A stretch of 32,000 bases of DNA from NCBI RefSeq assembly GCF_026547225.1, contig NZ_CP106878.1, forward strand, positions 1-32,000, read 5' to 3'. This document shows, one piece after another, positions 2,593-28,578 of the stretch (its first letter is position 1; every line of letters begins with the position of its first letter). A program made the position numbers and the translations under genes. The DNA is from Fervidibacillus albus (GTDB lineage Bacteria > Bacillota > Bacilli > Bacillales > Caldibacillaceae). Below the pieces are notes generated by a model, which was given only the letters and a program-made list of their open reading frames with translations, had not been told where the DNA came from and searched no databases.

Positions 2593-2631
2593 GTGGGTCG
2601 GGGGGACAGGAACCTCGACCCACCTTTTTTT
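2593..2631 (+). terminator. intrinsic terminator of the fliDST unit, built from one GC-rich palindromic unit
   Basis: GTGGGTCGGGG-GGACAGGAA-CCTCGACCCAC gives an 11-bp stem with 1 mismatch, followed by CTTTTTTT. It starts 1 nt after the fliT stop. Confidence 0.75.
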
Positions 2632-2800
2632 GGAAATTGGGGGCTAGGTGGGCCAAGAGAACCGGAACCTTGACCCAATTTGTGACGGAAGCGGGCCAAA
2701 AGAACCGGAACCACGGCCCTGGGTCAAAAGAACCGGAACCTTGACCCACCACGACAAGAAAAAATCATTCGAAAACAGGGTCGGGATAGGAACTGGAACA
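2593..2800 (+). repeat. cluster A of the GC-rich palindromic unit family (4 copies plus 1 degenerate)
   Basis: Copies at 2593-2623, 2648-2677, 2691-2719 and 2720-2749, with a degenerate copy at 2778-2800. All have the GAACC core on the + strand. Confidence 0.85.
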
Positions 2801-2986
2801 ATGGTTCCATATTCTCGGACTCAGGCCTAATATTTATTGAATATTCTTAAAATTACGCAATCTATATTTTTAGAATCGTTTCCAACTCGTTCGAAATTTC
2901 GACAAATTTTTTGCATTGAAAAGAAGGATTTTATGTATGGAATATAGAAATAATATATATAGTTATTATAAAGGAGGAGTTCGCAC

Positions 2987-3532
2987 ATGAGATACATTAT
3001 ACGTGGAGAAAACATTGAAGTAACTCCGGCTTTACGGGACTATACCGAAAAGAAGATTTCCAAGTTAGAAAAATATTTTACCGAAACTCCCGATGCAAAC
3101 GTATATGTCAATTTGAAAGTGTACCCGGATAAAAAAGCGAAAGTGGAAGTGACGATTCCGCTTAAGTATATTACGTTACGGGCAGAAGAAATGAATGAAG
3201 ATATGTATGCTGGCATCGATTTAATAACTGATAAATTGGAAAGACAAATTCGTAAACATAAAACGAAAATTAACCGGAAAGTTCGGGAAACGGGAATGAA
3301 AGATTTATTCGTCAACGGACCAACACTTACCGAACCGGAAAAGAAAGAAGAAGAAATTGAAATTGTTCGTGTAAAACGTTTTGATTTAAAACCGATGGAC
3401 AGTGAAGAAGCCGTCTTGCAAATGAACATGCTCGGTCACAACTTTTTCGTCTATACCGATGCCGAAACGAATTCGACGAACATCGTATACAAACGGAAAG
3501 ACGGAAAATACGGTCTGATTGAAACGAACTAA
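2987..3532 (+). CDS. hpf: ribosome hibernation promoting factor, long form (YvyD/HPF)
   Basis: 181 aa. The N-terminus MRYIIRGENIEVTPALRDYTEKKISKLEKYF is near-identical in pattern to B. subtilis YvyD. The C-terminal dimerisation region (FFVYTDAETN..IVYKRKDGKYGLIE) is present. RBS AAAGGAGGAG. Confidence 0.93.
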   Translation: MRYIIRGENIEVTPALRDYTEKKISKLEKYFTETPDANVYVNLKVYPDKKAKVEVTIPLKYITLRAEEMNEDMYAGIDLITDKLERQIRKHKTKINRKVRETGMKDLFVNGPTLTEPEKKEEEIEIVRVKRFDLKPMDSEEAVLQMNMLGHNFFVYTDAETNSTNIVYKRKDGKYGLIETN

Positions 3533-3548
3533 CTTGAGTTTAGCCCAG

Positions 3549-3582
3549 CCCCTGCGATCACTCATATCGCATGGGGTTTTTT
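3549..3582 (+). terminator. intrinsic terminator after hpf
   Basis: CCCCTGCGAT..ATCGCATGGGG forms a hairpin with one bulge, followed by TTTTTT. Confidence 0.7.
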
Positions 3583-3619
3583 ATTTTTGAATATAAAGAA
3601 GTATAAACGAAATTGTTTG

Positions 3620-3935
3620 AATCTGGGGATTTTCGTTAAAATTCGAGGGAATTTCGCGTTAATTCGAGGAAAATTTGTATGAATTCAAGGAAATTTCGAA
3701 TCAATTCGAGGAAAATTTGTATGAATTCAAGGAAATTCCGTGTCAATTTGAGGAAAATTAGCGTGAATTCGAGGAAATTCCGCGTTAATTTGAGGAAAAT
3801 TTGTATGAATTCGACGAAATTCCACAACAATTCAAAGAAAATTTGCATCAATTCGATTAAATTTTGCTTAAAACCGAGGAATTTCGACTTCAATTTGTAG
3901 AAATCTTGAGTAAACCCGAGAAAAATTCTGTAAAT
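3620..3935. repeat. tandem array of about 14 units of exactly 21 bp (consensus AATTCGAGGAAAWTTYSYRTN) with degenerate edge units
   Basis: Unit starts fall at 3640, 3661, 3682, 3703, 3724, 3745, 3766, 3787, 3808, 3829, 3850, 3871, 3892 and 3913, with no phase slip. Units 3661 and 3703 are identical. Alternating subtypes give a 42-bp higher-order repeat. Confidence 0.95.
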
Positions 3936-4054
3936 CCCCCGACTTCTGAAAAAATATTGTTATCATTACATAAAGGGATAAACTTTAGAAAATTTCCGAA
4001 TTCATCGGTAAACGGAAAATGAGTTGAAAATACAAATTCAAAGAGGTGAACACA

Positions 4055-5659
4055 ATGGACTTTTTACATTATCCATATCGTTCTCAACGGATGGCCACGT
4101 TTGCGAAAAAAGGAATGGTTGCCACATCCCAGTCACTTGCAGCCCAAGCCGGGTTGGACATTTTAAAAAAGGGAGGAAATGCCGTTGATGCTGCGATTGC
4201 TACAGCGGCTGCGTTAACGGTCGTTGAGCCTACTTCAAACGGGATCGGTGGAGATGCCTTTGCAATCGTTTGGATGAAAGATAAAATATACGGTTTAAAT
4301 AGTAGTGGCCCTTCGCCGAAAACAATATCGATCGAATCGGTAAAAAATCGGGGTTACGAACATATGCCGACCCATGGGATGATTCCTGTAACCGTTCCAG
4401 GAGTTCCAGCGGCGTGGGGAGCTTTAGCTGAACGATTTGGTAGACTCCCTCTAATCGAAAGTTTGCAACCGGCGATAACCTATGCACGGGAAGGATATCC
4501 AGTTAGCCCAACTTTAGGAAAATATTGGAATCTAGCGTATAAAAAATTTAAACAATTATTGAAAGGGGACGAATTTCGTTATTGGTTCGATACGTTTGCA
4601 CCGAACGGACGGGCTCCGAAAATCGGGGAATTATGGAACTCAGCTGATCATGCCAAAACGTTACAATCCATCGGCGAATCAAACGGTAAAAGTTTTTACA
4701 AAGGGGAACTAGCAGAAAAAATCGATGCATTTTTTAAAAAACATGAGGGGTTTTTAACAAAAGATGATTTGTCCGCTTTTAAACCGGAATGGGTGGAGCC
4801 AATCCGCACTAATTACAGAGGATACGACATTTGGGAAATCCCTCCGAACGGGCAAGGAATCGTCGCATTGATGGCACTATCAATTGTAAAAGGATTCGAT
4901 TTTTACGCAAAGGACGACATTGAAACGGTGCATAAACAAATTGAAGCGTTGAAACTGGCGATGACTGACGGAAAAGCGTATATTACCGATCCACACCATA
5001 TGGAAATCGCCATCGCTGAATTGTTATCGGAAAAATACGCTACGATGCAGAGGAAAAAAATTAAGGATACCGCTCTTATGCCACAACCGACAAATCTAGG
5101 GAAAAGTGGAACGGTTTATTTGGCAACTGCTGATGAAGAAGGGAATATGGTTTCGTATATTCAAAGCAACTATATGGGATTCGGTTCAGGGATTGTTGTT
5201 CCAGAAACGGGAATTGCGATGCAAAATCGGGGAGCGGACTTTTCCCTCGACCCGAATCACCCGAACGCTTTACAACCGGGAAAACGAACGTATCATACAA
5301 TCATCCCGGGATTTATAACGAAAGGGGAGGCTGCCATCGGTCCCTTTGGTGTGATGGGAGGATATATGCAACCTCAAGGCCATATGCAAGTCGTGATGAA
5401 CATGATTGATTTTCATTTGAATCCCCAAGCTGCCCTCGATGCACCCCGTTGGCAATGGATCGAAGGGAAACGAGTGATTGTCGAACCGGATTTTCCGAAC
5501 GATATTGCCCAAGGATTAGCGAGAAAGGGTCATGAAATTCAAATTTCTTTAGATCATGGTGCTTTCGGAAGGGGACAAATTATTTGGCGAGATCCAGAAA
5601 CCGGCGTACTAATGGGAGGAACGGAAAAACGAACGGACAGTGCCATCGCTTCATGGTAA
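4055..5659 (+). CDS. ggt: gamma-glutamyltransferase family protein without signal peptide (YwrD-like)
   Basis: 534 aa. GGT-family N-terminus (GMVATSQSLAAQAGLDILKKGGNAVDAAIATAAALTVVEPTSNGIGGD) and an autoprocessing/catalytic Thr context (GKSGTVYL). RBS AAGAGGTG lies 6 nt before ATG 4055, so the ORF-track GTG 4046 is probably too early. Confidence 0.88.
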   Translation: MDFLHYPYRSQRMATFAKKGMVATSQSLAAQAGLDILKKGGNAVDAAIATAAALTVVEPTSNGIGGDAFAIVWMKDKIYGLNSSGPSPKTISIESVKNRGYEHMPTHGMIPVTVPGVPAAWGALAERFGRLPLIESLQPAITYAREGYPVSPTLGKYWNLAYKKFKQLLKGDEFRYWFDTFAPNGRAPKIGELWNSADHAKTLQSIGESNGKSFYKGELAEKIDAFFKKHEGFLTKDDLSAFKPEWVEPIRTNYRGYDIWEIPPNGQGIVALMALSIVKGFDFYAKDDIETVHKQIEALKLAMTDGKAYITDPHHMEIAIAELLSEKYATMQRKKIKDTALMPQPTNLGKSGTVYLATADEEGNMVSYIQSNYMGFGSGIVVPETGIAMQNRGADFSLDPNHPNALQPGKRTYHTIIPGFITKGEAAIGPFGVMGGYMQPQGHMQVVMNMIDFHLNPQAALDAPRWQWIEGKRVIVEPDFPNDIAQGLARKGHEIQISLDHGAFGRGQIIWRDPETGVLMGGTEKRTDSAIASW

Positions 5660-5660
5660 T

Positions 5661-5822
5661 GGATCAAGGGGATCGCAACTTCGGTATTAAAGTGGGCCAA
5701 AAGAACCGGAACCCCGCCCCACCCCGCCCCACCAAAACTGGGTCAAGGGAACCGGAACCTCGACCCAGGGGAGCGGGTCAAAAAGTGGGTCAAAAGAACC
5801 GGAACCCCGCCCCACCTCGACC
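5661..5822 (+). repeat. cluster B of the GC-rich palindromic unit family (3 copies plus partials)
   Basis: Copies at 5692-5722, 5739-5767 and 5785-5815. Partials at 5661-5680 and 5772-5783. CCCGCCCCAC is duplicated locally at 5713-5732. The cluster starts 2 nt after the ggt stop. Confidence 0.85.
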
Positions 5823-5981
5823 TATTGTCGTTGCTATTTTTGAAAATCATTAGTAGACTAAATACGGACCAATTCCTATTACAACAAGGAAACATATTGT
5901 TTTTACGATTGGTCGAAAGAATTACGAGGCGAAATCAATCTATTAAAAAACAGTTATGGACTAAAACAAGAAGGTGAAGAC

Positions 5982-6551
5982 GTGAAGTACTTAAACATTT
6001 TTCTCGCCTTTTTCCGTGTGGGCATATTTGGTTACGGAGGCGGACCGAGTTCCATCCCCCTCGTGGAAAAGGAAGTCGTGGGGCGTTATAAATGGATGAA
6101 CGATGAAGATTTTTCCGATTGTTTAGCTATAGGGAATGCCTTACCCGGTCCGATCGCTACGAAACTAGCAGGATATATCGGTTATCGGGTCGGCGGATTT
6201 TTAGGCATGACAATTGCTTTAATTGCGACCATTTTACCGACCGTTTTCTTAATGATTGTTTTTTTAACGGTTTTGAATCAGTATAAAGATCAGCCTTGGG
6301 TTCAAGGCATGTCAAAGGCGGTCATTCCCGTTGTCGGCGTTATGCTAGGCATATTGACTTGGGAATTTGTGAAAAGAACGAAAGGCTCCTTTGGTTGGAT
6401 GAAAACCGTATTATTACTTGTCATTTGTTTTGTGTTAATGGAACCATTATCCATTCATCCTGCCATTTTAATCATCGTTTTTATTTTCGCTGCTTTATTG
6501 AAAAAAACGGATGATTCAACCAAAACGGAACGAAAGGTGAAGTCCCCATGA
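5982..6551 (+). CDS. chromate transporter (CHR family) short-chain subunit 1
   Basis: 189-aa polytopic protein with the CHR signature GYGGGPSSIPLVEKEVV...GNALPGPIATKLAGYIGY. GTG start after AAGGTGA. Paired with the next gene, as in B. subtilis ywrB/ywrA. Confidence 0.85.
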   Translation: MKYLNIFLAFFRVGIFGYGGGPSSIPLVEKEVVGRYKWMNDEDFSDCLAIGNALPGPIATKLAGYIGYRVGGFLGMTIALIATILPTVFLMIVFLTVLNQYKDQPWVQGMSKAVIPVVGVMLGILTWEFVKRTKGSFGWMKTVLLLVICFVLMEPLSIHPAILIIVFIFAALLKKTDDSTKTERKVKSP

Positions 6552-7078
6552 TTTATTGGAAAATTTTTCTCGCGTTTTTTATTCCAGGTATTTTAGGGTA
6601 TGGAGGCGGTCCAGGAACGATTCCTCTCGTGGAAAAGGAAGTCGTGGATCGGTACGGATGGATGGATCATCAACAATTTAGTGAAATGATTGCCCTCGGA
6701 AACGCTTTGCCCGGCCCGATTGCTACAAAAATGGCCGGATATATCGGATTTATGCAAGGAGGGGTTCTCGGATCTGTCGTTGCCCTAGTCGCCATCGTTG
6801 CCCCAACTTTAATTTTGATGATTGGCTTACTTAGCATTTTACAAAAATATAAAGACTCCCCGAAAGTAAAACAGCTAAGTCAAAATGTTCGTCCAGTCAT
6901 TGCGGTTTTATTAGGTGTGCTTACTTATGATTTTTTATTTGACTCTTTCCAGGGGATTGGCGGATGGCAAACGTTGATCATAGCTGTTCTCACTTACTTT
7001 TTTCTAGAACTTCGGAAAGTTCATCCTGCCTACGTCATTATCGGAGCCCTCGTTTACGGAGCCCTTTTTTTAGGCTGA
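6548..7078 (+). CDS. chromate transporter (CHR family) short-chain subunit 2
   Basis: 176-aa paralogue of the previous ORF (GYGGGPGTIPLVEKEVV...GNALPGPIATKMAGYIGF). The ATGA start/stop overlap indicates translational coupling. Confidence 0.85.
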   Translation: MIYWKIFLAFFIPGILGYGGGPGTIPLVEKEVVDRYGWMDHQQFSEMIALGNALPGPIATKMAGYIGFMQGGVLGSVVALVAIVAPTLILMIGLLSILQKYKDSPKVKQLSQNVRPVIAVLLGVLTYDFLFDSFQGIGGWQTLIIAVLTYFFLELRKVHPAYVIIGALVYGALFLG

Positions 7079-7292
7079 ATACCACCTGTTCGAAAATTAT
7101 TTGCGTTTTTCAAAAGGAAAGGAAAGACGAAACGAAATTCGACCCAAAAGAACTACGCGAAAAAATGAACGGTAGGACGAAAACGACGGAAAGGCGATCG
7201 TAAGCTAAACAATTTTAATCCATGCCGAATCTCCTCTATGAAAAAGTATGAGTTGATGAAAGTGAAAATGGCCATGTGGAACATTTCCTATG

Positions 7293-7340
7293 ACAAAAAA
7301 TAAAGGTGGATGAAGACCGGTTCAAGCCTTCATGTCCACC
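7293..7340 (-). terminator. intrinsic terminator of the minus-strand gene 7343..7843
   Basis: On the minus strand, GGTGGACATGAAGG..loop..CTTCATCCACC is followed by TTTATTTTTT. Confidence 0.7.
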
Positions 7341-7342
7341 TT

Positions 7343-7843
7343 TTACTGTCTGTTTTCTAACGTTTCTTCAATGATTTGTGTCGCTACATTAGGAATTTTT
7401 TCGTCTGTAAAACCGTAATACCAATCCAGATTCGTTTCAAAACGTTGGCTAAATTTCGCTACGATTTCATCCAATATCCCAACAGCTTCTTTATATACGC
7501 TTAAATCTTCCTCTGAAACATTGCCATCGTCAATTGCTTTTTCTAACACAGAATCGATCTCATCAAGCAATTCATTTGCTTCTCCGACAAATTCCAATTG
7601 TATCAAAAAGAATCGTTCAGCAATGCTCTCTATGTATTTTCGACCTTCCTCTGTTTTTGCTGCTTCATTCAGATCCACAGTCTTCATATCATCTAATGTT
7701 TGACTGATCGCGTACATCGATTCCTTCCAAACAGCACCAGCCTCTCTCTTCGCATCCATTGTTTTGCTATAAAAGTACACATTTGCTACGAGAGATATGA
7801 GTAATCCAATGATCACAGAAGGAATGACAATCTTCTTTTTCAT
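7343..7843 (-). CDS. hypothetical membrane-anchored protein (N-terminal TM helix, acidic helical ectodomain)
   Basis: 166 aa. RBS AAGGAGA lies 5 nt before the ATG. MKKKIVIPSVIIGLLISLVANVYFY looks like a signal-anchor. I recognise no family. Confidence 0.6.
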   Translation of the reverse strand: MKKKIVIPSVIIGLLISLVANVYFYSKTMDAKREAGAVWKESMYAISQTLDDMKTVDLNEAAKTEEGRKYIESIAERFFLIQLEFVGEANELLDEIDSVLEKAIDDGNVSEEDLSVYKEAVGILDEIVAKFSQRFETNLDWYYGFTDEKIPNVATQIIEETLENRQ

Positions 7844-8004
7844 TAGTTTCTCCTTTTCATTGTTTTCTTTTATTATAGCGCATAGCCAATATAACTTCTA
7901 ACAATTTTCCGTCTACAATGAATTGTCGGATATTTCACCGTAAAAAAGCTCTTGTTCGAACAATTAGAAATTAGCTTTTATGCCCCGATAATTAGTTGTC
8001 ATTC

Positions 8005-8718
8005 TTATAATTTTTCATTTATTAATTTTTTAACCTTTTGATAGGCAGCTAATTCAGACATTTCTAAAGGAGAATAATCACCTTCAGCTTGTGGTGGAAC
8101 AAACCGAGAAACTTTCCCATTTTTAATATTAAATTTTCCTTGATGTGCCCCTAATACAACATAATGTTCTTCATTCAATGATGATGCAAAAAAATCGGTC
8201 TTGTCAGCGAATAATAAGACTTTATCGTTCATTTCCATGTTTGGAACACCATTAAATACTACTTTCACTTTTTCTTTTAATTGTTCTTTAGGATAATCTT
8301 TAAATTTCTTTCCAATACCTGCTTCTTCTTTCGTTGTGATTCCTCCTGGCTCCATAACCGTTAAAACTTGCCCAACTTGAACGTCTCCTTTTAATACTTT
8401 TTCTACTTCTACATTCACTTTCGTATAAACAGTCCGATCTTCACCCACTTGCCAATTGAAAGACTCCGTTTCTAACACTTTTCCCTCAATGATTAGTGAA
8501 GCGTCTTCTGTAAGGTCCTCAATACTATTATATATTCTAGTAAAATCTACTTTTGTAACTATTTCATCCATCTTTTCTTCGGTACCTAATTGAGTCTGAT
8601 CTAATTTTACAGATGATTCAGCCAAACCAACTTCTTCACTTTTATTATCATTATAATTTAAATAAATTAACATACCTACTGTTAGAAGTGAAGCGATGAT
8701 AATCAGAGATTTTTTCAT
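8005..8718 (-). CDS. hypothetical secreted or membrane-anchored protein
   Basis: 237 aa counted from ATG 8718, which has the RBS AAAGGGAGA upstream. The ORF-track start at 8772 lacks an RBS. MKKSLIIIASLLTVGMLIYL looks like a signal-anchor, and the remainder looks beta-rich. The gene is AT-rich and I recognise no family. Confidence 0.55.
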   Translation of the reverse strand: MKKSLIIIASLLTVGMLIYLNYNDNKSEEVGLAESSVKLDQTQLGTEEKMDEIVTKVDFTRIYNSIEDLTEDASLIIEGKVLETESFNWQVGEDRTVYTKVNVEVEKVLKGDVQVGQVLTVMEPGGITTKEEAGIGKKFKDYPKEQLKEKVKVVFNGVPNMEMNDKVLLFADKTDFFASSLNEEHYVVLGAHQGKFNIKNGKVSRFVPPQAEGDYSPLEMSELAAYQKVKKLINEKL

Positions 8719-9278
8719 TTTCGATCTCCCTTTCATAAAATGAATATAAGTGATTGATTCCATATAAATCATCCGATTGCGCTACATTCACAGCTTTACC
8801 ATAGCCAATCGACCTATAACAGCATATTTATTTGAATCCCACTACATTAGAAATTTTACGATATTTTAGAAAAAAAATCAAACAAAATATTATGAATCTT
8901 TTATACAAATATAGTTAACAAAAGAACAATGAAGGAATGATGAGTGAATTACTTTTTAAATAGAGAATGAGAGGAAGGAGAAAAATTTGCCTAAGGAAGC
9001 ACGATGAAGTATAAAATGTGCTTACAAATTACACCTGAAAAAATTGCATGCAAATATTTGACTCAAACCACCTATAACCGATTGTTGTCACACATTACTG
9101 ATAATGTTAATATAAAAAATATGTTAAAATAAATGTGATTTGTAAAAATGTAGTGATCAACGAAAAACGAACATATTTCGTAAAATGTCCAACTTTCTAT
9201 TTTTAAACTTACCAATCGGATTTTAGGAACTATTTTGCACGGCCAAAAGGTTTTTTAATTTAAAGGAGCGTTGTTCAC

Positions 9279-13260: not shown

Positions 13261-13278
13261 TCCAATCGAAATTTTATG

Positions 13279-13311
13279 AAAGGGCGGTCTATGAAAAACC
13301 GTCCTTTTTTA
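13279..13311 (+). terminator. intrinsic terminator after prfB
   Basis: AAAGGGCGGT..ACCGTCCTTT forms a hairpin with 1 mismatch, followed by a T-run. Confidence 0.7.
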
Positions 13312-13474: not shown

Positions 13475-13792
13475 GTGAAAAAAACATACTTATTATTGAT
13501 CGGTTTTTTGGTAGTCGGCCTGTTGTCTGCGTGCGGAGGAGATGAAGATTCCGCCGATCACGTTGCAACGTCCGATTTGTCTGGGGAAGAGTTGTACATG
13601 CAATATTGTTCCAGTTGCCATGGAGGTGACTTGAAGGCAGGATACGCGCCGGATTTGGACAATGTCGGATCGAATTTTACTGTAGAAGAAATTGAAGATA
13701 TTATCGTCAACGGATATAAATCAATGCCTCAAGGACTATTAAAAGGTGATGATGCAAAAAAAGTTGCCGAATGGCTAGCCGAACAAAAATAA
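13475..13792 (+). CDS. cccB: membrane-anchored (lipoprotein) cytochrome c-551
   Basis: 105 aa counted from GTG 13475, which follows the RBS AAGGGGGA. Lipobox LLSAC, heme-binding CSSCH, and a distal Met (YKSMP). Located between prfB and ftsE, as in B. subtilis. Confidence 0.85.
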   Translation: MKKTYLLLIGFLVVGLLSACGGDEDSADHVATSDLSGEELYMQYCSSCHGGDLKAGYAPDLDNVGSNFTVEEIEDIIVNGYKSMPQGLLKGDDAKKVAEWLAEQK

Positions 13793-13795
13793 AAA

Positions 13796-14000
13796 GTGGG
13801 CCGAGGTTCCGGTTCTCTCAGCCCACTTTTTCGCTGGTGGGTCGAGGTTCCGGTTCTCTCAGCCCACTTTTTCGCTGGTGGGTCGAGGTTCCGGTTCTCT
13901 CGGCCCACTCCTCTCAGCCCACTCTCTCAGCCCACTTCATCCCAGTGGGTCAAAGGAACCGGAATCACGGCTCATTCCTTTGAATTCGAACCTCGACCAA
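13796..14000. repeat. cluster C of the GC-rich palindromic unit family: 3 x 41-bp tandem units in reverse orientation, partials, and one forward copy
   Basis: Reverse-orientation copies at 13796-13826, 13837-13867 and 13878-13908, each followed by TTTTTCGCTG (the first two) or by partial arms. Arm fragments at 13909-13935. A forward copy at 13945-13973. The first unit plus TTTTT probably terminates cccB. Confidence 0.85.
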
Positions 14001-17283: not shown

Positions 17284-17296
17284 CATTGGATACACG

Positions 17297-19666: not shown

Positions 19667-19995
19667 TTGTATCCCTCCTTGAAAAAACACATTGATATTG
19701 TTTACGAACACTAGTTGTTAAAAGTTTCCTTTTTCGAAAAAAATTTTAATGATTATTGTGGGAACTAATATAAACTCGAACGTTTCATATAATCATTGAT
19801 TTTTTCCGAATGGGTGACAAAAAAACTCTTCAACAAATTATACACAAAAGATTAAGGGTTCGTATAATTCCCGGCTTTCGTGAAAAGTTATAAACATTAG
19901 TTCGTCGGTATCAATCTGTTTGCATACGTAGTGAAATGAAAAGGAATAACGCAAAAGAGTTGTCGAATGATTTTTTTGGAAAGGAGGGGAAAAAG

Positions 19996-21576: not shown

Positions 21577-21724
21577 GGAAACCTTTTCGCCTTCGAACAA
21601 AGAAGAAAAAGGAGAGAATTACGTAACGTACAACCTATTGGCCAAAGGAAAAAAATAAAATCGATATCATGACTAAGGGACAGGTCGAACACGGGATTTG
21701 TATTTCCGAAACATATAGGGTAAA

Positions 21725-21756
21725 AAAAGAACAAAGGAGTCCCCCTTTGTTCTTTT
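21725..21756. terminator. bidirectional terminator between the convergent nucleotidase and yebC genes
   Basis: A perfect 13-bp stem, AAAAGAACAAAGG / CCTTTGTTCTTTT, with a 6-nt loop. The A-run and T-run flanks give a U-tract on both strands. Confidence 0.8.
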
Positions 21757-21783
21757 ACTGTGAATTATTTACAGATCGACATT

Positions 21784-22503
21784 TCACTCACCTAAATCCA
21801 CATTATGGTATACCCGTTGTACGTCATCCAAATCTTCCAACACGTCGATCAATTTTTCAAATTGTTGTTTCGCCTCTTCTGTCAAAGTGACTTCATTTTG
21901 TGGAAGCATCGTCAATTCGGCGACCGTGAATTCGTCAATTCCAGCACCTTTCAACGTTTCTTGAACGGCATGGAATTGTTCCGGTTCGGCGTAAATAATG
22001 ACCGCGCCATCCTCTTCGAAAATATCCCGCACGTCTAAGTCTGCTTCCATTAAAATTTCCAATACATCGTCAGCCGTCTTTCCTTCTAGTCCGATGACAG
22101 CAGTAGAATCAAACATATACGAAACGGAACCGTTCACACCGAGATTGCCACCGTTTTTATTGAAAGCGGCACGGAGATCGGCTGCGGTCCGATTGACATT
22201 ATTTGTTAATGCATCGACGATAATCATCGAACCATTCGGGCCGAAACCTTCGTAGCGAAGCTCATCGTAATTTTCATCTGAACCACCCTTTGCCTTTTCG
22301 ATGGCCCGATCGATAATATGTCTCGGAACATTGTATGTTTTTGCCCGTTCGAGGACGAATTTTAACGCTTGGTTGGATTCGGGGTCGGGTACGCCTTGTT
22401 TTGCGGCCACATAAATTTCACGTCCGAATTTCGCATAAATACGACTCGTATTCTTATCCTTCATGGCCTTCTTTTCTTTAATGTTATTCCATTTACGTCC
22501 CAT
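21784..22503 (-). CDS. yebC: YebC/PmpR family DNA-binding transcriptional regulator
   Basis: 239 aa counted from ATG 22503. [30 protein letters not shown] is the canonical YebC N-terminus. Confidence 0.92.
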
Positions 22504-22801
22504 TACCAACACTCACCTTCATTAAAGTTTTACATGTCCATAGTAATACAAAAAGGCGGGATTCTACAATCATTTTTTCACGATCGTCACGAAATTACGC
22601 ATATTTTCAAACATTGTATGAAACGTTACAAAAATCGCGAAATTTAAAATCTGTGTTAGTTGACGAGGGAAGATCAATTTCGAAACGAAAATGATCAATT
22701 CCTGTTTGCACAAACGCCTTTTCAATACGTGGAAGAATCGACTCCTCCACATAAGTTGTCCCATTCTATCATAAAAATGGTTTACGAAGGGGGGACAGCT
22801 T

Positions 22802-24232
22802 TTGAAAAGACGAACGTTTATTATCCTATGGATCTGTTCGATGCTCGTTGCATCAGTATGTACGTACTTCGGGATTCAATTTTTTCCAAAATCAATGTTC
22901 ACCGGGCATGAAATCAGTAAGGAAGGAACGACGGTTGATTTATCCAAGGTGGAAAAAGCGGTGCAAATCATTTTGGAATCGTATGTGGAAGATGTGGATG
23001 AAAAGGTACTCGTAGAAGGGGCTGTGGAAGGGATGCTCGAACGATTACAAGATCCATACTCGGTTTATTTGAATGAAGAACAATCGAAGGAGTTTCGTCA
23101 ATCATTGGAATCATCCTTCGAAGGAATTGGTGCGGAAATTAGTGAAGTGGACGGGAAAATTTTAATTATATCTCCGTTGAAAAATTCGCCTGCAGAAAAG
23201 GCTGGACTGAAACCGTATGACGAAATCGTAGAGGTCGATGGAGAGCCGATTACAAATATGGACGTATACGATGTGATGATGAAAATTCGTGGGGAAAAGG
23301 GGACGAACGTATCTTTAAAAATTGTACGGGAAGGAATGCAAAAACCGATTGTTATCGACGTCCTTCGCGATCAAATTCCGATTGAAACTGTCTTTTCAAA
23401 TAACATTCACCATCAAAACAAAATCATCGGATATTTAGAAATTACGTCTTTTGCCCAAAATACGGGAAAGGATTTTGTACACCATTTGCACACTTTGGAA
23501 AAGGAAAAACTCGATGGACTCATCATCGACGTTCGGGGAAATCCGGGGGGACTGTTATCGAGTGTGGAAGAAATCGTCCAAGAAATTGTGACGAATGAAA
23601 AACCGTATGCACAAATCGAAGGGAAAAATGGAAAACGCCAACCGTTGTATACGAACCGAACGGAGAAAAAACCGTATCCGATCGTCGTATTGACGGATAA
23701 AGGGAGTGCATCGGCTTCAGAAATTTTAGCTGCAGCATTAAAGGAAGGCGAAGGGTACCCGCTTATCGGGGAAAAGACGTTCGGAAAGGGGACCGTCCAA
23801 CAACAAATTGAACTGGGGGATGACACTTTTATGAAATTGACGATGTATAAATGGTTGACTCCGAACGGCCGTTGGATTCACGGAAAAGGGATCGAGCCGG
23901 ATATAACAGTTGAACAATCGGATTTGTTTCACTTGCATCCGATTCAAATTGACCATCCCCTTGAAAAGGATATGAACAATGAACAAGTGAAATATGCCCA
24001 AGAACTTTTACAAACGATCGGTTTTGAACCGGGCCGAACAGACGGTTATTTTAACGAACGGACAGAACAGGCAGTGAAACATTTTCAACAAGAACACGAT
24101 TTGCCGACCACGGGCATAATTGACGACCGTACCGTTTACGAAATGGGAAAGATCGTCCTTCAAGAGATGAATAAGATGGAAAACGATCGACAGTTGCAAA
24201 TGGCATTGAAATATTTCGAATATAGTTCGTAA
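22802..24232 (+). CDS. ctpB: S41 carboxy-terminal processing protease with PDZ and C-terminal peptidoglycan-binding domains
   Basis: 476 aa. TTG start after GAAGGGGGG. N-terminal TM helix, PDZ domain (GAEISEVDGKILIISPLKNSPAEKAGLKPYDEIVEVDG), catalytic Ser in GSASASE and Lys in TFGKGT. PG_binding_1-like tail (GRTDGYFNERTEQAVKHFQQEHDLPTTGIIDDRT). The symbol is assigned by synteny (ftsX...ctpB-minJ). Confidence 0.8.
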   Translation: MKRRTFIILWICSMLVASVCTYFGIQFFPKSMFTGHEISKEGTTVDLSKVEKAVQIILESYVEDVDEKVLVEGAVEGMLERLQDPYSVYLNEEQSKEFRQSLESSFEGIGAEISEVDGKILIISPLKNSPAEKAGLKPYDEIVEVDGEPITNMDVYDVMMKIRGEKGTNVSLKIVREGMQKPIVIDVLRDQIPIETVFSNNIHHQNKIIGYLEITSFAQNTGKDFVHHLHTLEKEKLDGLIIDVRGNPGGLLSSVEEIVQEIVTNEKPYAQIEGKNGKRQPLYTNRTEKKPYPIVVLTDKGSASASEILAAALKEGEGYPLIGEKTFGKGTVQQQIELGDDTFMKLTMYKWLTPNGRWIHGKGIEPDITVEQSDLFHLHPIQIDHPLEKDMNNEQVKYAQELLQTIGFEPGRTDGYFNERTEQAVKHFQQEHDLPTTGIIDDRTVYEMGKIVLQEMNKMENDRQLQMALKYFEYSS

Positions 24233-24368
24233 AAGAAACGAGCGAATTTTCGAAGGAAAAGAAAACGCACTCCACGTCCAGATTATAGGTAGAAAATCAT
24301 ATAGGTTTTTCAAAAAATTTTTGCTAAAATAAAAGTAATAAACGTTTTGGACGAGGGGGTGCCCTTCA

Positions 24369-25559
24369 TTGGAAGATGGACTTTTACAAATACTTTTCGG
24401 AATCGGCAAATTTTTTCTCCATCCGTTATTGTATCTTGGACTTTTTTATGCGATTTATCTCGGTTACATTCGGGTGAAACGGGAGAGAAAAGATTTCCAT
24501 ATTCGTGTACAAGACGGCTGGTTTGAAGCTCGTACATACTTGGCGAAAGGGTTCATCCCGGGAGTCCTATTGTCGGTCGTCATTTTTCTCATCGGGTTTC
24601 ACGTATCCCTCTCCTTCGTCATTCTATCGGGATTCGTCATCTTATTGTTCGGGCTCCTATTGAAACCGGGCCTCCTTTCCCCTGCCTTTACGATTGGCTT
24701 TACCTTTTTCTTTCTGTTTGCGATGGATGCTTTCCAATGGGAACTGTCAATTTTAAATATTACCCTTTCGACGAATGACGGAGGGTTCCTTTCCGAAATC
24801 GCTCTACTTATCGGTTTTATGGTCATCGTTGAAGGATGGTTGATTCAAAGAAACGGCTCGAAACATACGTCTCCGAAAATCATCCGAAGTAGACGGGGCT
24901 TAAAGGTTGGCATCCATGAATCGAAAAGGATATGGCTCGTTCCACTGCTTTTCCTTATTCCAGAGGGGAGTTTTTCGTCACCTTTCGATTTTTGGCCGGT
25001 CGTCCCCGTAGGTAGTGAAACGTTCTCGGTTTTACTCGTTCCGTATTGGATCGGTTTTTCCCAACAAATCCGAATTTCTTTGCCAAAGGAAGGACTACGT
25101 GCGATTGGAAGGCAAGTGATTTTCGTCGGGTTTATCGCAACGGTCTTCGGTGTTGTTAGTTTTTCGTACCCGATGTTATCGATCGTCGCCGTTCTTTTCG
25201 CGATGGTCGGAAGAATCGTGATTCCGATCGTTCAACGGTTTCAAAATAACACCTATCCGTATTATTTTTCGAAAAACGAACGGGGAATCGTCGTATTAGA
25301 CATTATTCCCGGTTCACCGGCGGAAAAAATGGGCATCCAAATCGGGGAAATAATAAAAACAGTCAATGGAATATCCGTCGCTAACGAACAAGAATATTAC
25401 GCGGCTTTGCAACGAAATCGGGCGTTTTGCAAATTGGAAGTTATCGACGAACAAGGTGAGAACCGGCTCGTCAATCGTGCCCTTTATGAAGGCGAGCATC
25501 ATGAACTCGGTGTCATCTTCATCGATGCAGAAAAACAGTGGGACACCGATGCAGGATAA
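24369..25559 (+). CDS. minJ: polytopic membrane protein with C-terminal PDZ domain, MinJ-like division-site determinant
   Basis: 396 aa. TTG start after GAGGGGG. Multiple TM helices and a C-terminal PDZ domain (VLDIIPGSPAEKMGIQIGEIIKTVNG). Size, architecture and position after ctpB match B. subtilis MinJ (YvjD). Confidence 0.65.
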   Translation: MEDGLLQILFGIGKFFLHPLLYLGLFYAIYLGYIRVKRERKDFHIRVQDGWFEARTYLAKGFIPGVLLSVVIFLIGFHVSLSFVILSGFVILLFGLLLKPGLLSPAFTIGFTFFFLFAMDAFQWELSILNITLSTNDGGFLSEIALLIGFMVIVEGWLIQRNGSKHTSPKIIRSRRGLKVGIHESKRIWLVPLLFLIPEGSFSSPFDFWPVVPVGSETFSVLLVPYWIGFSQQIRISLPKEGLRAIGRQVIFVGFIATVFGVVSFSYPMLSIVAVLFAMVGRIVIPIVQRFQNNTYPYYFSKNERGIVVLDIIPGSPAEKMGIQIGEIIKTVNGISVANEQEYYAALQRNRAFCKLEVIDEQGENRLVNRALYEGEHHELGVIFIDAEKQWDTDAG

Positions 25560-25564
25560 TTCCA

Positions 25565-25606
25565 GTGGGTCGAAGGTGGGTCGAGGGGACGCGAACCTCG
25601 ACCCAC
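25565..25606. repeat. cluster D: one perfect GC-rich palindromic unit plus a half-copy, a likely terminator between convergent genes
   Basis: Half-copy GTGGGTCGAAG at 25565-25575. The full unit at 25576-25606, GTGGGTCGAGG-GGACGCGAA-CCTCGACCCAC, has a perfect 11-bp stem. Confidence 0.85.
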
Positions 25607-25655
25607 TTGCGTCATTTTATGAAGTTTCCGCCCCCCTTTTTATAGACCACATCAT

Positions 25656-26429
25656 TCATCCTCTCCTTTCATCTCCTCTCACGTCCGTCAACTTCTCCGC
25701 TCTCCCTCGTCGTTGTTTTTCACGAAACACAAGCCAAATGAACAAACTAAAAACGATCAAAAGTCCCTCCATCGAAACGATATACCACGGATACGGTCCT
25801 AAAAGATTGAGTAAACTTGCAATTTCTGGTTTTCGGCTTAAAAACATATAATTTCCCCCGGTCCAATGATTCACGAGCAAAATAATTGGTAGTAAGACAT
25901 TTAAAAATAGGACGATTTTTACAACCGATCGAATCGTCGGCCGGTATTCTTTAACCCACGTGTAATACAGAGCGATCCAAATCATAACGATATGTGTGTA
26001 AAAAAAGTGGATAAATCGGAAATGGGGGAAATTGTAATGCAAAAGCGGTGTCGCAATCGCCTGGGTTGCACCTAAGAGGGCGGTAAACAAAAACAATTCA
26101 TAAACGGCTTTTTTCTCTGTCAAAAGCAAAATAATGGCCAAGATTAAACTAATATTACAAAGTTCGAGGGGAAGGGATTGATACGTATGCCAAATGCCGT
26201 TTTTATACATCCAATAATGGTAAGCTGATTCAAAAATGATAAGGGAGATGGCGATTCCAATCCCGATTTTTCTAAAAGACCATTTTGCCAATCTCCTTTG
26301 AAAAATGAAAATAATCGCTGCTCCGGCAAAAAATAAAACGAGCATAAACAGATGGGTCGCAGAAAACATTTGAAACGGATTGTCCTCATACATAATGCCG
26401 AACCAATTCACCTTTTCCCTCCCTTTCAT
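25656..26429 (-). CDS. TIGR02206/YwaF-type integral membrane protein
   Basis: About 257 aa with seven or more TM helices and a conserved-looking LPLELCN motif. GGGAGG lies 5 nt before ATG 26429. GTG 26411 is an alternative start. The family assignment is from memory of YwaF-like proteins. Confidence 0.65.
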   Translation of the reverse strand: MKGREKVNWFGIMYEDNPFQMFSATHLFMLVLFFAGAAIIFIFQRRLAKWSFRKIGIGIAISLIIFESAYHYWMYKNGIWHTYQSLPLELCNISLILAIILLLTEKKAVYELFLFTALLGATQAIATPLLHYNFPHFRFIHFFYTHIVMIWIALYYTWVKEYRPTIRSVVKIVLFLNVLLPIILLVNHWTGGNYMFLSRKPEIASLLNLLGPYPWYIVSMEGLLIVFSLFIWLVFREKQRRGRAEKLTDVRGDERRG

Positions 26430-26645
26430 TGAATCCTCCCACAAAATAAAATAGACGTCCGGTTTCTTTTATTTTACGTAATTGTTACCAAAGGGGAAAC
26501 ATCGAAAACGTCCAGCGCATAAAAAATCGAAAAAGACATATTTCAAAAAAATGTAACAAAGGTAAAACACTGTCATCTTTTTCATGGCGAAAGCGTTTTA
26601 CAGGAAAAGTATGAATTAAACAATGTTTATAGGAGGGTCAGCCCC

Positions 26646-26762
26646 TTGGAAGCGCGGGAACGGATTTTACAAACGACGATGAATTTGATTAGTGAAGAAG
26701 GGTTTGAGATGCTCACGTCGTTGCGGAAGATTGCCAAAAAAGCAAAGGGCCAAAGGATTTAG
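26646..26762 (+). pseudogene. truncated TetR-family regulator (N-terminal HTH fragment only, 38 codons)
   Basis: AGGAGGG RBS followed by a TTG start. The translation LEARERILQTTMNLISEEGFEMLTSLRKIAKKAKGQRI* matches the start of the TetR_N HTH pattern (RERIL..A..L..E.GF...S...IA..AG). It stops where the AT-rich block containing the convergent small gene begins. Confidence 0.55.
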
Positions 26763-26779
26763 AAGATCAATGAATACAA

Positions 26780-27079
26780 TCAGGATTGTTGAGCAGGATC
26801 TTTCTTTGAAGCACTGATCATTAATAAAATTGCAGTGATGATATGCAAAGTCATACCGACGAATGGAATCCATCCAACACAAGAGGTAACGATGCCTAAA
26901 ATGCTTGGAGCTATTTCGCTATCTTCTTTTAAACTAAAGACTAATGTTACAATATGAAGGATTAGCATTACGATTAAAGGGGTCCATAAAAACCCGATAA
27001 TAATACTTGCACCAATAATCGGAATACCTAAAAATGCCTCCATTCCTCCAGTGACCCATTTTAAAACTTTTGAAACCAT
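26780..27079 (-). CDS. small hydrophobic membrane protein (99 aa, about 3 TM helices), function unknown
   Basis: GGAGG lies 6 nt before the ATG. There is an internal repeat of a G(I/W)IP(I/F)xG...HI(V/I)T pattern. The surrounding DNA is AT-rich. Confidence 0.6.
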   Translation of the reverse strand: MVSKVLKWVTGGMEAFLGIPIIGASIIIGFLWTPLIVMLILHIVTLVFSLKEDSEIAPSILGIVTSCVGWIPFVGMTLHIITAILLMISASKKDPAQQS

Positions 27080-27450
27080 AAATGGCCTCCTTTCACTAAT
27101 ATAGTTATAGGATTATAAATGCATTTTATAATAACTTTCAAACAGATACAATGAATCGTATTAATATTTTATCTGTTAATAAATTACTAAAAAATTTTAT
27201 CGGTATATTCAACCTGTTTACAATTAAATCCTTTATGCAAATATCCCCATTTTTTATGCAAAATGGTTTTTGAATGATCTTCATTTAATAAAAGGTAGCA
27301 AAGCATTCGTAGTTATGAATCTGTGGAATAAACGTTTTTTCTAATTCGTTTTCTTGGAATTGTACGATCGTGAGTAGAGTTAGGTCCTATTTATTATTGC
27401 AAGATATAGAAACTGACGGGGGAAGAAGGTTCGAATTGAATAAAAACAAT

Positions 27451-27479
27451 TTGTATAGTATAGGGGGGTATAGTATAAT
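27451..27479 (+). promoter_or_regulatory. sigma-A type promoter of csoR-copZ-copA with a candidate CsoR operator in the spacer
   Basis: TTGTAT, 17 nt, TATAAT. The spacer holds TATAGTATA-GGGGGG-TATAGTATA, so the G6 tract at 27463-27468 is flanked by direct 9-mers. ATAGTATAGGGGGGTAT resembles the B. subtilis copZA operator ATACCCTACGGGGGTAT as recalled from memory. Confidence 0.5.
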
Positions 27480-27544
27480 ATAATTACCGTACAATATTAC
27501 TACGAATTTTCGTTTGTTAATATGTCTATGAAAGGGGGAAGAAA

Positions 27545-27880
27545 ATGGTTGATATGGAATTGAGCGAGCAGTCGGGGGTTTTGGGTGATACGTGTAGCAA
27601 TCGAAAAAGCCATCATTCAGAGGCAACGAAAAAAAACTTGATTAACCGTCTAAACCGAATCGAAGGTCAAATTCGTGGAGTAAAAGGGTTGATTGAAAAG
27701 GACACATATTGCGATGATGTCTTAAACCAAATTGCATCCATTCAATCCGCATTAAACGGGGTTTCGAAAATTCTCCTTGAAGGCCATTTGAAAACATGTG
27801 TTGTCGAACGGATTCAAGATGGAGATATGGACGTATTGGATGAGTTTCTCGGAACGATCCAGCGAGTGATGAAAAAATAA
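27545..27880 (+). CDS. csoR: copper-sensing transcriptional repressor CsoR
   Basis: 111 aa. NRLNRIEGQIRGVKGLIEKDTYCDDVLNQI...EGHLKTCV carries the C-H-C Cu(I) ligand pattern of CsoR. RBS AAGGGGGAA. Confidence 0.93.
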   Translation: MVDMELSEQSGVLGDTCSNRKSHHSEATKKNLINRLNRIEGQIRGVKGLIEKDTYCDDVLNQIASIQSALNGVSKILLEGHLKTCVVERIQDGDMDVLDEFLGTIQRVMKK

Positions 27881-28061
27881 AATTGGACAAAACGGATTTC
27901 CCTTCGCTTTTTCAAGAAAGTTTTGAGGCGGATTAATAAAGGAAAAACCCAAGCCATTGGACACTTTAATAAAAAAGGAGATTGAAGGGGAGACGTTCAT
28001 TTCACCGGATATTCAGTACAAAAATCAACTTATGATTAAAAATTAGAAAGGAGAAAGATCA

Positions 28062-28265
28062 ATGGAAAAAGTAACGTTAGAAGTACAAGGAATGTCTTGT
28101 CAACATTGTGTAAAGGCAGTGGAAGGAAGTGTGGGCGCATTAAACGGTGTCGCAAACGTCGTCGTTCACCTTCAAGAAGGAAAGGTCGATGTGGAATTCA
28201 ACCCAGGAGTCGTATCTTTAGAAGCAATCAAAGAAACAATCGAAGACGAAGGATATGAAGTGTAA
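28062..28265 (+). CDS. copZ: copper chaperone CopZ
   Basis: 67-aa HMA domain with the GMSCQHC metal-binding motif. RBS AAAGGAGAAAG. Confidence 0.95.
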   Translation: MEKVTLEVQGMSCQHCVKAVEGSVGALNGVANVVVHLQEGKVDVEFNPGVVSLEAIKETIEDEGYEV

Positions 28266-28279
28266 TTCGACTAACCAAA

Positions 28280-28578
28280 GTGGGTCGAGGGTGGGTCGAG
28301 GGGACAGGAACCTTGACCCAGAACGAGCGAAAGTGTGCCAAGGGGACAGGAACTTTGAACCAGGATGAGCGAAAGTGTGCCAGGCCAAGGGGACAGGAAC
28401 CTTGACCCAGAACGAGCGAAAGTGTGCCAAGGGGACAGGAACCTTGACCCAGGATGAGCGAAAGTGGGCCAAGGGGACAGGAACCTTGACCCAGGATGAG
28501 CGAAAGTGGGCCAAGGGGACAGGAACCTTGACCCAGAATGAGCGAAAGTGGGCCAAAAGAACCGGAACCACGACCCAC
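28280..28578 (+). repeat. cluster E: 7 tandem copies (period 42 bp, one 47 bp) of the GC-rich palindromic unit plus the conserved linker RRAYGAGCGAAA
   Basis: Units at 28291-28320, 28333-28362, 28375-28409, 28422-28451, 28464-28493, 28506-28535 and 28548-28578, with a half-copy at 28280-28290. The array occupies almost the whole 337-bp copZ-copA spacer. Confidence 0.95.

Follow-up and report, generated by a model that had tools for sequence, protein, structure and literature searches.

What are the short, GC-rich palindromes that recur between genes near the start of the Fervidibacillus albus genome, and to which class of bacterial repeats do they belong? We analyzed the first 32,000 nucleotides (nt) of contig NZ_CP106878.1 (assembly GCF_026547225.1, forward strand; this whole 32-kb stretch is called the window below), in which an initial annotation, made from the sequence alone, had pointed to a dispersed family of hairpins of about 31 nt. 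Our analyses indicate that the unit is probably an undescribed family of the repetitive extragenic palindromic (REP) type that belongs to the genus Fervidibacillus and has relatives in other Bacillaceae. The family is new, but the REP class of bacterial intergenic repeats is well known.

Census and anatomy of the hairpin unit

The window carries 19 full copies of a 31-nt GC-rich hairpin unit in five clusters (Table 1). A degenerate 20-mer core with up to two mismatches matched 19 times in the window and not once in 100 dinucleotide-preserving shuffles. A scan with the 31-mer consensus returned the identical 19 units, and a covariance model (built from 94 units and run with filters off) yielded the same 19 and no others. 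The concordance of these three independent scans confirms the census, and all of the approximately 19 copies that the initial annotation had placed in five clusters were recovered where it had put them. Every unit in the window is intergenic, and the mean G+C content of the units is 64%, compared with 40.4% for the window, in line with the earlier description of GC-rich units on a background of about 40%. Two loop subtypes (i.e., AGAACCGGAACC and GGGACAGGAACC), inverted units (three, at 13796-13908), and half-copies had also been reported; all of these were seen again, the last as arm duplications and degenerate copies. The GAACC core, which had been described as invariant, proved to be near-invariant only (the unit at 13945 has GAATC and that at 28333 has GAACT), and the unit at 25576 has GGGACGC as its first loop half.

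These 19 units and 75 units from Fervidibacillus halotolerans (described below) aligned without gaps (consensus, GTGGGYCAARGGAACCGGAACCTYGACCCAC). The unit is a 31-nt imperfect palindrome with an 11-bp stem and a 9-nt loop that contains a near-invariant core (GAACCGGAAC or GGACAGGAAC). Among the 94 units, conservation was 90% or higher at nearly every column of loop positions 12 to 22, and the loop was better conserved than the stem. When only the arms were searched for (TGGGNC-N(13-21)-GNCCCA), every match had exactly 17 inner bases and 50 of the 51 had the GGAAC core. The fixed interior and the core thus identify the loop as an integral, constrained part of the unit and not as a spacer. With the units set in the GGAACC orientation, an A was present at position -1 in 71 and at position -2 in 60 of the 94 copies; the other flank showed no such signal.

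Pairing of the arms depends on the strand. Counted over copies and not over independent events, 88.7% of the stem positions were paired on the strand with the GGTTCC loop versus 73.4% on its complement, both values being far above those of slid controls. The stem cells of the F. halotolerans units comprised 571 Watson-Crick pairs, 24 wobble pairs, and 230 mismatches on the GGAACC strand versus 571, 174, and 80, respectively, on the GGTTCC-loop strand; most mismatches in the GGAACC orientation are A.C or C.A and thus correspond to G.U or G.T pairs on the complement. The GGTTCC-loop strand gave the better fold in 72 of the 94 units. The arms of a perfect palindrome read alike on either strand, and the asymmetry can therefore be defined only with reference to the loop. 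The orientation of the loop is, in turn, random with respect to genes and replication (see below), which rules out strand-biased mutation as the cause of the asymmetry. Most simply, these sequence patterns suggest that it is the single-stranded hairpin that counts, and that the relevant strand would be the one with the GGTTCC loop.

This asymmetry bears on the idea that the units are sites in double-stranded DNA, namely that a DNA-uptake-like or nucleoid-protein site (AAGTGGGYC) is placed after genes in inverted pairs, as in Neisseria or Haemophilus. The arms do form an inverted AAGTGGGYC pair at a fixed 17-nt spacing, and random orientation fits a duplex site. However, a 15-percentage-point strand asymmetry of pairing is meaningless for such a site, which also would not account for the invariant, asymmetric loop or for duplicated half-units; in addition, the stems co-vary between genera while the loop stays constant. 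We regard duplex sites as extremely improbable.

Each unit folds alone as RNA, with a mean folding energy of -11.7 to -12.6 kcal/mol per unit. In the RNA of the cccB cluster (13785-13990), inverted and direct units pair with each other to give a long hairpin (z = -7.8), while the direct copZ-copA array as a whole folds only marginally better than shuffles (z = -2.0). A further explanation is a structured RNA or a protein-binding motif that acts through its loop, e.g., GGA hairpin loops (ACAGGAAC) that titrate CsrA, with the seven-unit array serving as a sponge. A loop more conserved than its stem is compatible with this, as are the one or two GGA motifs exposed by the loop in the GGAACC orientation, the location of the first cluster in the flagellar fliD-fliS-fliT neighborhood, and the presence of the GGAACC orientation in the sense transcript for 15 of the 19 window units. 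Over both genomes, however, orientation relative to the upstream gene is near random, and the better-pairing strand is the complementary one, with a UUCC loop. Together with the missing Rfam match and the marginal fold of the direct array, this makes a CsrA-type role very improbable.

Copies in Fervidibacillus halotolerans and turnover at orthologous sites

The genus Fervidibacillus comprises two named species. In a genome collection with one representative per bacterial species, we searched for the pattern TGGGYCRRRRGRACMGGAACC, and the figures given here are those among the 120 matches listed. F. halotolerans MEBiC13594 (2.94 Mb) was the only genome with many matches (at least 21 blocks of 8 kb), and most other genomes had one match each. 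The 21 blocks contain at least 75 units (up to five mismatches to the consensus) spread from 0.16 to 2.6 Mb, as anticipated by the initial annotation, which had deduced a high genomic copy number. Matches in high-GC genomes (Tsukamurella, Streptomyces, and others) were single, several with coding-like flanks, and were rejected as chance or conserved coding sequence.

The window is orthologous, in reverse order, to positions 2,192,001-2,224,000 of F. halotolerans (73 to 90% nucleotide identity), and four of its five clusters are present at orthologous sites there. After fliT, the window has four units and F. halotolerans has three; the first unit and its flanks are identical (31/31) while the surrounding spacer has diverged, and the second orthologous unit differs in loop subtype between the species. 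After ggt, there are three units in the window and two in F. halotolerans. After cccB, an inverted unit adjoins the stop codon in each of the two species (30/31 identical); the window has tripled this inverted unit with a 41-nt period, while F. halotolerans has tripled a direct unit. The copZ-copA spacer holds seven units in the window versus two plus a chimeric unit in F. halotolerans. Copy number therefore differs at three of the four shared sites, and a different unit has been amplified at the fourth. Each species has one cluster that the other lacks: the window has a full unit after 25559, where F. halotolerans has only a half-similar terminator, and two units follow the chromate-transporter gene (6548-7078) in F. 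halotolerans but none does so in the window.

Orthologous units keep the loop while the arms change, and partial copies break mostly at the stem end or in mid-loop, between GAACCG and GAACC. Orthologous sites with differing counts and subtypes indicate that the sites are old and that copy number and loop subtype turn over. The comparison directly shows local tandem and partial duplication. The initial annotation had considered that a lack of other copies, combined with identical orthologous loci, would speak for old locus-specific terminators; we found further copies, and the orthologous clusters are not identical.

Several observations were made at these and other F. halotolerans loci. The chimeric unit (GTGGGTCAAGGGGACGGTTCCTTTGACCCAC; L020:361-391) has a loop that fuses both orientations (GGGGAC + GGTTCC), which is what template switching or conversion inside a hairpin would be expected to produce. 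At the site of the two units after the chromate-transporter gene, the window carries an insertion of about 2 kb (7079-9078; 31 to 37% G+C) that is absent from F. halotolerans and holds two minus-strand open reading frames (ORFs; 7343-7843 and 8005-8772), both without a Pfam match. At one locus (L033), the recurrent linker tttccagaaaatg is oriented oppositely relative to the loops compared with other loci. The largest hairpin-unit clusters found in F. halotolerans flank, on both sides, a Wadjet-like four-gene set (DUF2397, DUF2398, SbcC/SMC-like, and DUF3323+DUF2399; L046:729-7679 and L002:1-1443; 2.328-2.337 Mb).

Position relative to genes and terminators

Using genes called by a codon-usage score trained on long ORFs, we placed 39 clusters from both species. 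Co-directional genes flank 24 of these, convergent genes flank 8, and divergent genes flank 6. For 18 of the 24 clusters with co-directional neighbors, the upstream stop codon is nearer than the next start, commonly at a distance of 0 to 7 nt, and a TAA stop sometimes abuts the GTGGG of the unit directly. Approximately 26 of the 39 clusters have a stop codon within roughly 25 to 35 nt. The remaining clusters include seven in two long non-coding stretches (about 1 kb; L002 and L087), and some units are located upstream of genes. A position next to a stop codon, mostly within 0 to 25 nt, is strongly favored but not universal. The initial annotation had stated that units always follow a stop codon, which fails for F. 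halotolerans, where about one-third of the clusters are elsewhere in long intergenic regions. Its distances of 1 to 15 nt for the window hold if partial and degenerate copies are counted (approximately 1, 0, 3, 5, and 14 nt) but not for full units (1, 32, 3, 16, and 25 nt). Its gene names were confirmed for ggt (gamma-glutamyltransferase), cccB (cytochrome c551), copZ, and hpf, and the identities of ftsE and copA were likewise confirmed; fliT has no family match and is named by synteny and position alone, and the "minJ-like" gene weakly matches HtrA-type protease families in their PDZ-containing part.

Neighboring units are arranged head-to-tail in 52 of 55 pairs. The three inverted pairs are found in the cccB cluster of both species and at L112:5459-5535. 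The linkers between units recur and are 10 to 16 nt long.

The position behind stop codons raises the possibility that the units are ordinary intrinsic terminators or 3' stabilizer hairpins that resemble each other through gene conversion or convergence and are immobile. The first units after fliT and cccB, which have T-runs and are conserved (31/31 and 30/31), agree with such a role, as do the orthologous sites of four of the five window clusters and the differing loop subtypes of orthologous units, which suggest conversion. However, a T-tract on either side was found in only 26 of the 94 units (including those first units after fliT and cccB), the other 68 being without one, and at several loci a separate canonical terminator stands beside the unit; most units are thus not canonical terminators themselves. 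Termination needs no invariant loop of 9 to 11 nt, and arrays of three to seven units and partial copies would be superfluous for it. Moreover, units also occur upstream of genes and in the 1-kb non-coding stretches, the same loop is present in other genera and beside RayT genes (see below), and other window genes have unrelated terminators (e.g., 3553-3571 after hpf), as had been noted before. An origin as immobile terminators is, in our judgment, decidedly unlikely.

In F. halotolerans, the ORF of a phosphotransferase system (PTS) EIIA-IIB-IIC protein reads through two hairpin units at its 3' end (L026:4406-6418), where the repeats may have extended or replaced the C terminus.

Relatives with the same loop and an apparent link to RayT genes

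Searches for described families agreed with the initial view that the unit is not a recognized named family. The unit clusters had no Rfam match at the gathering threshold, and permissive scans gave chance-level matches only (E >= 0.14). No similar DNA was detected by blastn of the array against plasmid and phage collections, and a scan of viral contigs returned three singletons. The translated array, searched against proteins for mis-called ORFs in other genomes, had no match, and the strict full-unit pattern had none in metagenomes. In the literature searched, we found nothing on this sequence, on repeats in Fervidibacillus, or on REP elements in Bacillaceae. The genes examined beside the largest F. 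halotolerans clusters and around genes bracketed by clusters are all ordinary (pullulanase, Wadjet-like JetABCD, PTS, GH31, enoyl-CoA hydratase, and a ferritin-like protein), and no target-site duplication or conserved target was readable at singleton insertions.

Low-GC contigs of Sutcliffiella halmapala and of a Robertmurraya metagenome-assembled genome contain, between AT-rich flanks, hairpins that share the loop GGGACAGGAAC and whose stems are related or co-varying; the best of these units scored 39.8 bits on the Fervidibacillus model. No RayT was detected in the examined contigs of either genus by tblastn or with a profile of 120 RayT homologs. A looser pattern (GGGTCNNNGGGACAGGAACNNNGACCC) retrieved 12 contigs from metagenomes. 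Units bound a gene for a protein of 270 amino acids in four contigs and remnants of it in a fifth (L126, L132, L135, L130, and L136). One of the 12 (L128) has a direct array like that of the window; most of the remaining 11 have a G+C content of about 40 to 54%, one of them (L129) with Bacteroidales-type neighbors (HU-HIG and BspA-like repeats). The array of L128, a 1.8-kb metagenome contig with 45% G+C (LSQX01031236.1; L128:800-1040), consists of TGGGTCATGGGGACAGGAACCATGACCCA units with linkers of about 45 to 80 nt, which score 27 to 34 bits on the Fervidibacillus model; this is the arrangement closest to that of the window found outside the genus.

The 270-residue protein matches Pfam Y1_Tnp PF01797 (48.7 bits; cut-off, 23) and NCBIfam NF047646 "REP-associated tyrosine transposase" (65 bits; E = 6e-18), the latter score being below the curated threshold of 80. 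The protein also contains NHVH and YIHQNP motifs, which are tabulated for a RayT subclass of Bacteroidetes (PMC6006769). It has 6,368 homologs at E <= 1e-10, some from Prevotella or Xylanibacter, and some homologs bear the Joint Genome Institute label "REP element-mobilizing transposase RayT." One side of the gene bears a single unit (GGGGTCGTGGGGACAGGCACTTGACCCAC), and the other bears an inverted doublet (CGGGTCGTGGGGACAGGAACATTGACCCAAGTCTGGGTCAAGTGCCTGTCCCCATGACCCG). The flanking units of the Prevotella-like RayT genes have the loop GGGGACAGG[A/C]AC, as in the Bacillaceae units. Doublets likewise flank a 65%-identical RayT homolog, and a 51%-identical homolog from X. brevis is flanked by GGGGACAGGTCA-type motifs. 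We also observed a doublet inside the called RayT ORF of one contig (L136) and several RayT paralogs or fragments in another (L130). The GGGGACAGG-loop class thus appears to be linked to a RayT clade, a link tempered by the bias of the search pattern and by low model scores, both of which are quantified below, and by the negative RayT searches in the Fervidibacillus, Sutcliffiella, and Robertmurraya DNA examined.

We also considered whether the units are end hairpins of non-autonomous IS200/IS605 derivatives, i.e., elements resembling palindrome-associated transposable elements (PATEs) or miniature inverted-repeat transposable elements (MITEs), in which left and right ends of the same orientation, with a short linker, are moved as single-stranded DNA by TnpA in trans. 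The units are overwhelmingly direct, with recurrent linkers of 12 to 13 nt (e.g., tttccaggaaatg, cattttctggga, and caaattttggaa); pairing is kept on one strand only, as for top-strand hairpins; no target-site duplication is visible; and RayT and the TnpA of IS200 are sister enzymes (PMC6006769). Nevertheless, the Fervidibacillus DNA examined contains no IS200-type TnpA or TnpB, the units have no replication-strand bias, unlike single-strand "peel and paste" elements, and arrays of up to seven identical hairpins are unlike left-end/right-end pairs. The only transposase beside same-loop units is RayT-like by its NHVH and YIHQNP motifs and its match to the REP-associated model. We consider an IS200/IS605 origin unlikely and prefer assignment to the REP type.

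Comparison with known repeat classes

The unit has two features of the generic REP definition: it is a short stem-loop palindrome (31 nt with an 11-bp stem, where 20 to 40 nt is the rule), and it occurs in many extragenic copies (19 in 32 kb, and at least 75 in 21 F. halotolerans blocks). The definition also names a RayT in the same genome, typically with repeats on its flanks; such an association was seen in the Prevotella-like contigs, and no RayT was detected in the window or in the F. halotolerans DNA examined. The initial annotation had likened the family to REP elements and bacterial interspersed mosaic elements (BIMEs). The former comparison fits; the latter does not, since the linkers recur but the units are direct and not alternately inverted. 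Nor do the units form REPINs (an inverted REP pair as one long hairpin), given 52 head-to-tail versus 3 inverted pairs. They also differ from the superfamilies with GTAG or CGTC tags, since they end in GTGGG...CCCAC and their one-sided flank signal is AA only, and from IS200/IS605 PATEs, since clusters divide 18 versus 20 by GC skew and no TnpA was present in the DNA examined. Two other readings were rejected: the spacers between units are 10 to 16 nt and mutually identical, which does not suit an array of clustered regularly interspaced short palindromic repeats (CRISPR), and integron attC-like sites were dismissed on the same identical spacers, the absence of a GTTRRRY core, and the housekeeping nature of the upstream genes.

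The REP elements and BIMEs of enterobacteria and Pseudomonas are likewise GC-rich imperfect palindromes of 20 to 40 nt in many extragenic copies, mostly at gene 3' ends and inside operons, and the copZ-copA array parallels that of E. coli malE-malF. Liang, Rudd, and Deutscher reportedly observed in 2015 a lowering of upstream expression by E. coli REPs that lie no more than 15 nt from the stop codon. Clusters with conserved linkers, G.T pairs in the stem, and contact with stop codons are also shared (PMC3733652). In contrast, the Fervidibacillus host is a low-GC Gram-positive thermophile, and its units have a large (9-nt), near-invariant loop, no GTAG tag, and head-to-tail arrays instead of alternating inverted Y/Z units.

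A survey of REP families (PMC3733652) defines them by a GTAG or CGTC tag and describes stem-loops of 20 to 40 nt with complementary stem changes among subfamilies and frequent G.T pairs; they occur as singletons, dimers, and reiterated groups, and their ends touch or supply stop codons. The phyla with such families in that survey are Proteobacteria, Cyanobacteria, Chloroflexi, the PVC group, Chlorobi, Bacteroidetes, Spirochaetes, and Thermotogae, with no Firmicutes, and a GTGG variant tag is reported for Opitutus terrae only. The Fervidibacillus units resemble these REPs, including SMAG of Stenotrophomonas, in the stem-loop, in subfamilies with complementary stem changes, in G.T pairing, in occurring as singletons, dimers, and reiterated groups, and in nearness to ORF ends (PMC3733652). 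They differ in having GTGGG/CCCAC ends on both sides, inside the stem, while the loops of the tagged REPs are mostly 2 to 5 nt.

Like the REPINs mobilized by RayT (TnpA-REP; Bertels and Rainey 2011), the units are hairpin repeats apparently read as single-stranded DNA, and same-loop units flank RayT genes as inverted doublets in the Prevotella-like contigs; in Fervidibacillus, no RayT was found in the DNA examined. With the end hairpins of IS200/IS605 and with PATEs, they share strand-specific imperfect hairpins, direct pairs, the absence of target duplication, and a related enzyme family, but they differ in lacking a replication-strand bias, in forming long homogeneous arrays, and in having no TnpA or TnpB nearby in the DNA examined. 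STAR of S. aureus, BOX/RUP/SPRITE of S. pneumoniae, and bcr1 of the B. cereus group are also dispersed intergenic repeats of Firmicutes, but none has sequence similarity to the Fervidibacillus unit. STAR is GC-rich in a low-GC genome and is reiterated with a spacing of roughly 40 nt. Elements such as bcr1, RUP, and BOX are MITE-like or modular, 100 to 200 nt long, with terminal inverted repeats (PMC3733652).

Several findings weigh against a REP-type family dispersed by a RayT-class enzyme. Neither the window nor 168 kb of F. halotolerans yielded a Y1 transposase (tblastn and the profile of 120 RayT homologs), and none of 20 genes checked near F. halotolerans clusters encodes a transposase. 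The units carry no GTAG or CGTC end tag. Head-to-tail REP dimers are rare (PMC3733652) yet dominate in Fervidibacillus, where only 3 of 55 pairs are inverted, while REPINs and BIMEs use inverted pairs. The Prevotella link was found with a pattern that fixes 21 of 27 bases, so that the similarity is partly imposed by the search, and the Prevotella units score only 14 to 20 bits on the Fervidibacillus model. F. halotolerans has diverged by about 20% and yet shares the sites of four of the five window clusters, a pattern that does not demonstrate recent transposition. Orientation relative to the upstream gene is unbiased (37 co-oriented versus 25 anti-oriented units; roughly 8 versus 11 clusters), which disfavors functions that need one loop sequence in the mRNA, and local GC skew reveals no replication-strand bias (18 versus 20 clusters). 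As copies were counted, a few founder variants could partly explain the strand asymmetry.

Feature coordinates and other repeats in the window

Table 1. Hairpin-unit clusters and partial copies in the window, and the RayT-type gene flanked by same-loop units
Feature	Coordinates	Strand	Details
Cluster 1	2593..2749	+	Units 2593-2623, 2648-2678, 2691-2721, 2719-2749; starts 1 nt past the stop of the fliT-position gene (2244-2591); T7 after first unit
Degenerate partial unit GGGTCGGGATAGGAACTGGAAC	2778..2799	+	Downstream of cluster 1; read by eye, below scan thresholds
Degenerate unit TGGATCAAGGGGATCGCAACTTCGG	5660..5684	+	Directly after ggt stop (5657-5659); about 19/25 positions match the subtype-2 unit
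Cluster 2	5692..5815	+	Units 5692-5722, 5738-5768, 5785-5815; 10-nt 3'-arm duplication 5723-5732; degenerate partial 5' arm 5773-5784
Cluster 3a	13796..13908	-	Inverted units 13796-13826, 13837-13867, 13878-13908; 41-nt tandem array (13796-13909); starts 3 nt past cytochrome c551 stop; TTTTT after first two units
Two tandem 3'-arm duplications (TCCTCTCAGCCCAC, TCTCTCAGCCCAC)	13910..13936	+	Period 13, 3.1 copies
Cluster 3b	13945..13975	+	Single direct, decayed unit, able to pair with the first inverted unit of 3a into a long hairpin; degenerate fragment GAACCTCGACC at 13988-13998
Cluster 4	25565..25606	+	11-nt 5'-arm duplicate 25565-25575, full unit 25576-25606; between convergent genes 24369-25559 (+) and 25656-26444 (-)
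Cluster 5	28280..28578	+	5'-arm duplicate 28280-28290; seven 31-nt units starting at 28291, 28333, 28380, 28422, 28464, 28506, 28548; 42-nt period (28291-28577); linker GAAYGAGCGAAA; occupies the copZ-copA spacer and ends 24 nt upstream of copA start
RayT-type Y1 transposase gene	L126:177-989 (flanked region 90-1024)		Prevotella-like metagenome contig

The window also contains a genuine CRISPR array (31419-31648): its four repeats of 30 nt (GTTTTGATCTTACCTATGAGGGATTGAAAC) each score 45.7 bits on Rfam CRISPR-DR2, the spacers are 35 to 39 nt long, and a degenerate fifth repeat lies near 31687 (feature to 31710). The array is the only Rfam gathering-threshold match in the window, which contains no cas gene. 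A second, unrelated repeat between hpf and ggt (3598-3933) is a 21/42-nt tandem array (AATTCGAGGAAATTTCGCATC) of about 12 to 16 copies; ORFs across it have no Pfam match. In the hpf-ggt spacer of F. halotolerans (L036:635-1303), the array is longer and is built of a related 21-nt unit (TTTACCCGAATTC), and similar "cctgaatta" motifs are interleaved with hairpin units at L002:5270-6500 and L087:2480-3640.

Proposed mechanism and significance

We observed a hairpin with strand-specific pairing, a constrained loop, a post-stop position, and growth by tandem duplication. In the mechanism that we propose for this REP-type family, the hairpin would be read as a single strand by a protein that recognizes the loop. 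Because same-loop units flank RayT genes in Prevotella-like contigs, we infer that a RayT-class HUH Y1 transposase is the most likely agent of dispersal. Arrays grow and shrink locally through tandem duplication of whole and half units. Once transcribed, the hairpins may serve as 3' stem-loops, either shielding the upstream mRNA or attenuating read-through, e.g., by holding the copZ level above the copA level, and units that abut a stop codon may interfere with translation termination. For the minority with T-tracts (fliT and cccB), the unit would be the intrinsic terminator of the gene.

A broader proposal is that GGGGACAGG-loop hairpins form a cross-phylum REP superfamily, from Prevotella (Bacteroidota) to Bacillaceae (Bacillota), that is associated with one RayT clade (NHVH, YIHQNP, and a long C-terminal domain). 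In Fervidibacillus, the units would be orphans or served in trans, would multiply head-to-tail and not as REPINs, and would have been co-opted as post-stop hairpins that set ratios such as copZ:copA. We offer this as a tentative possibility and lean against it at present. If true, it would be the first REP/RayT-type system described in Bacillaceae.

In practical terms, the arrays create false ORFs and mark points of operon-internal attenuation (e.g., copZ-copA), and since copy number differs between the species (at three of the four shared sites), they may serve as a strain-typing marker. REP repeats are well studied in Proteobacteria, and the small (2.9 Mb) genome of a thermophilic member of Bacillaceae would offer a compact system. 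The family bears on how such repeats spread without inverted doublets and on what reads the conserved loop. It also bears on whether a hairpin that touches the stop codon may tune translation or mRNA life in Gram-positive bacteria, in which the RNA decay machinery differs from that of E. coli.

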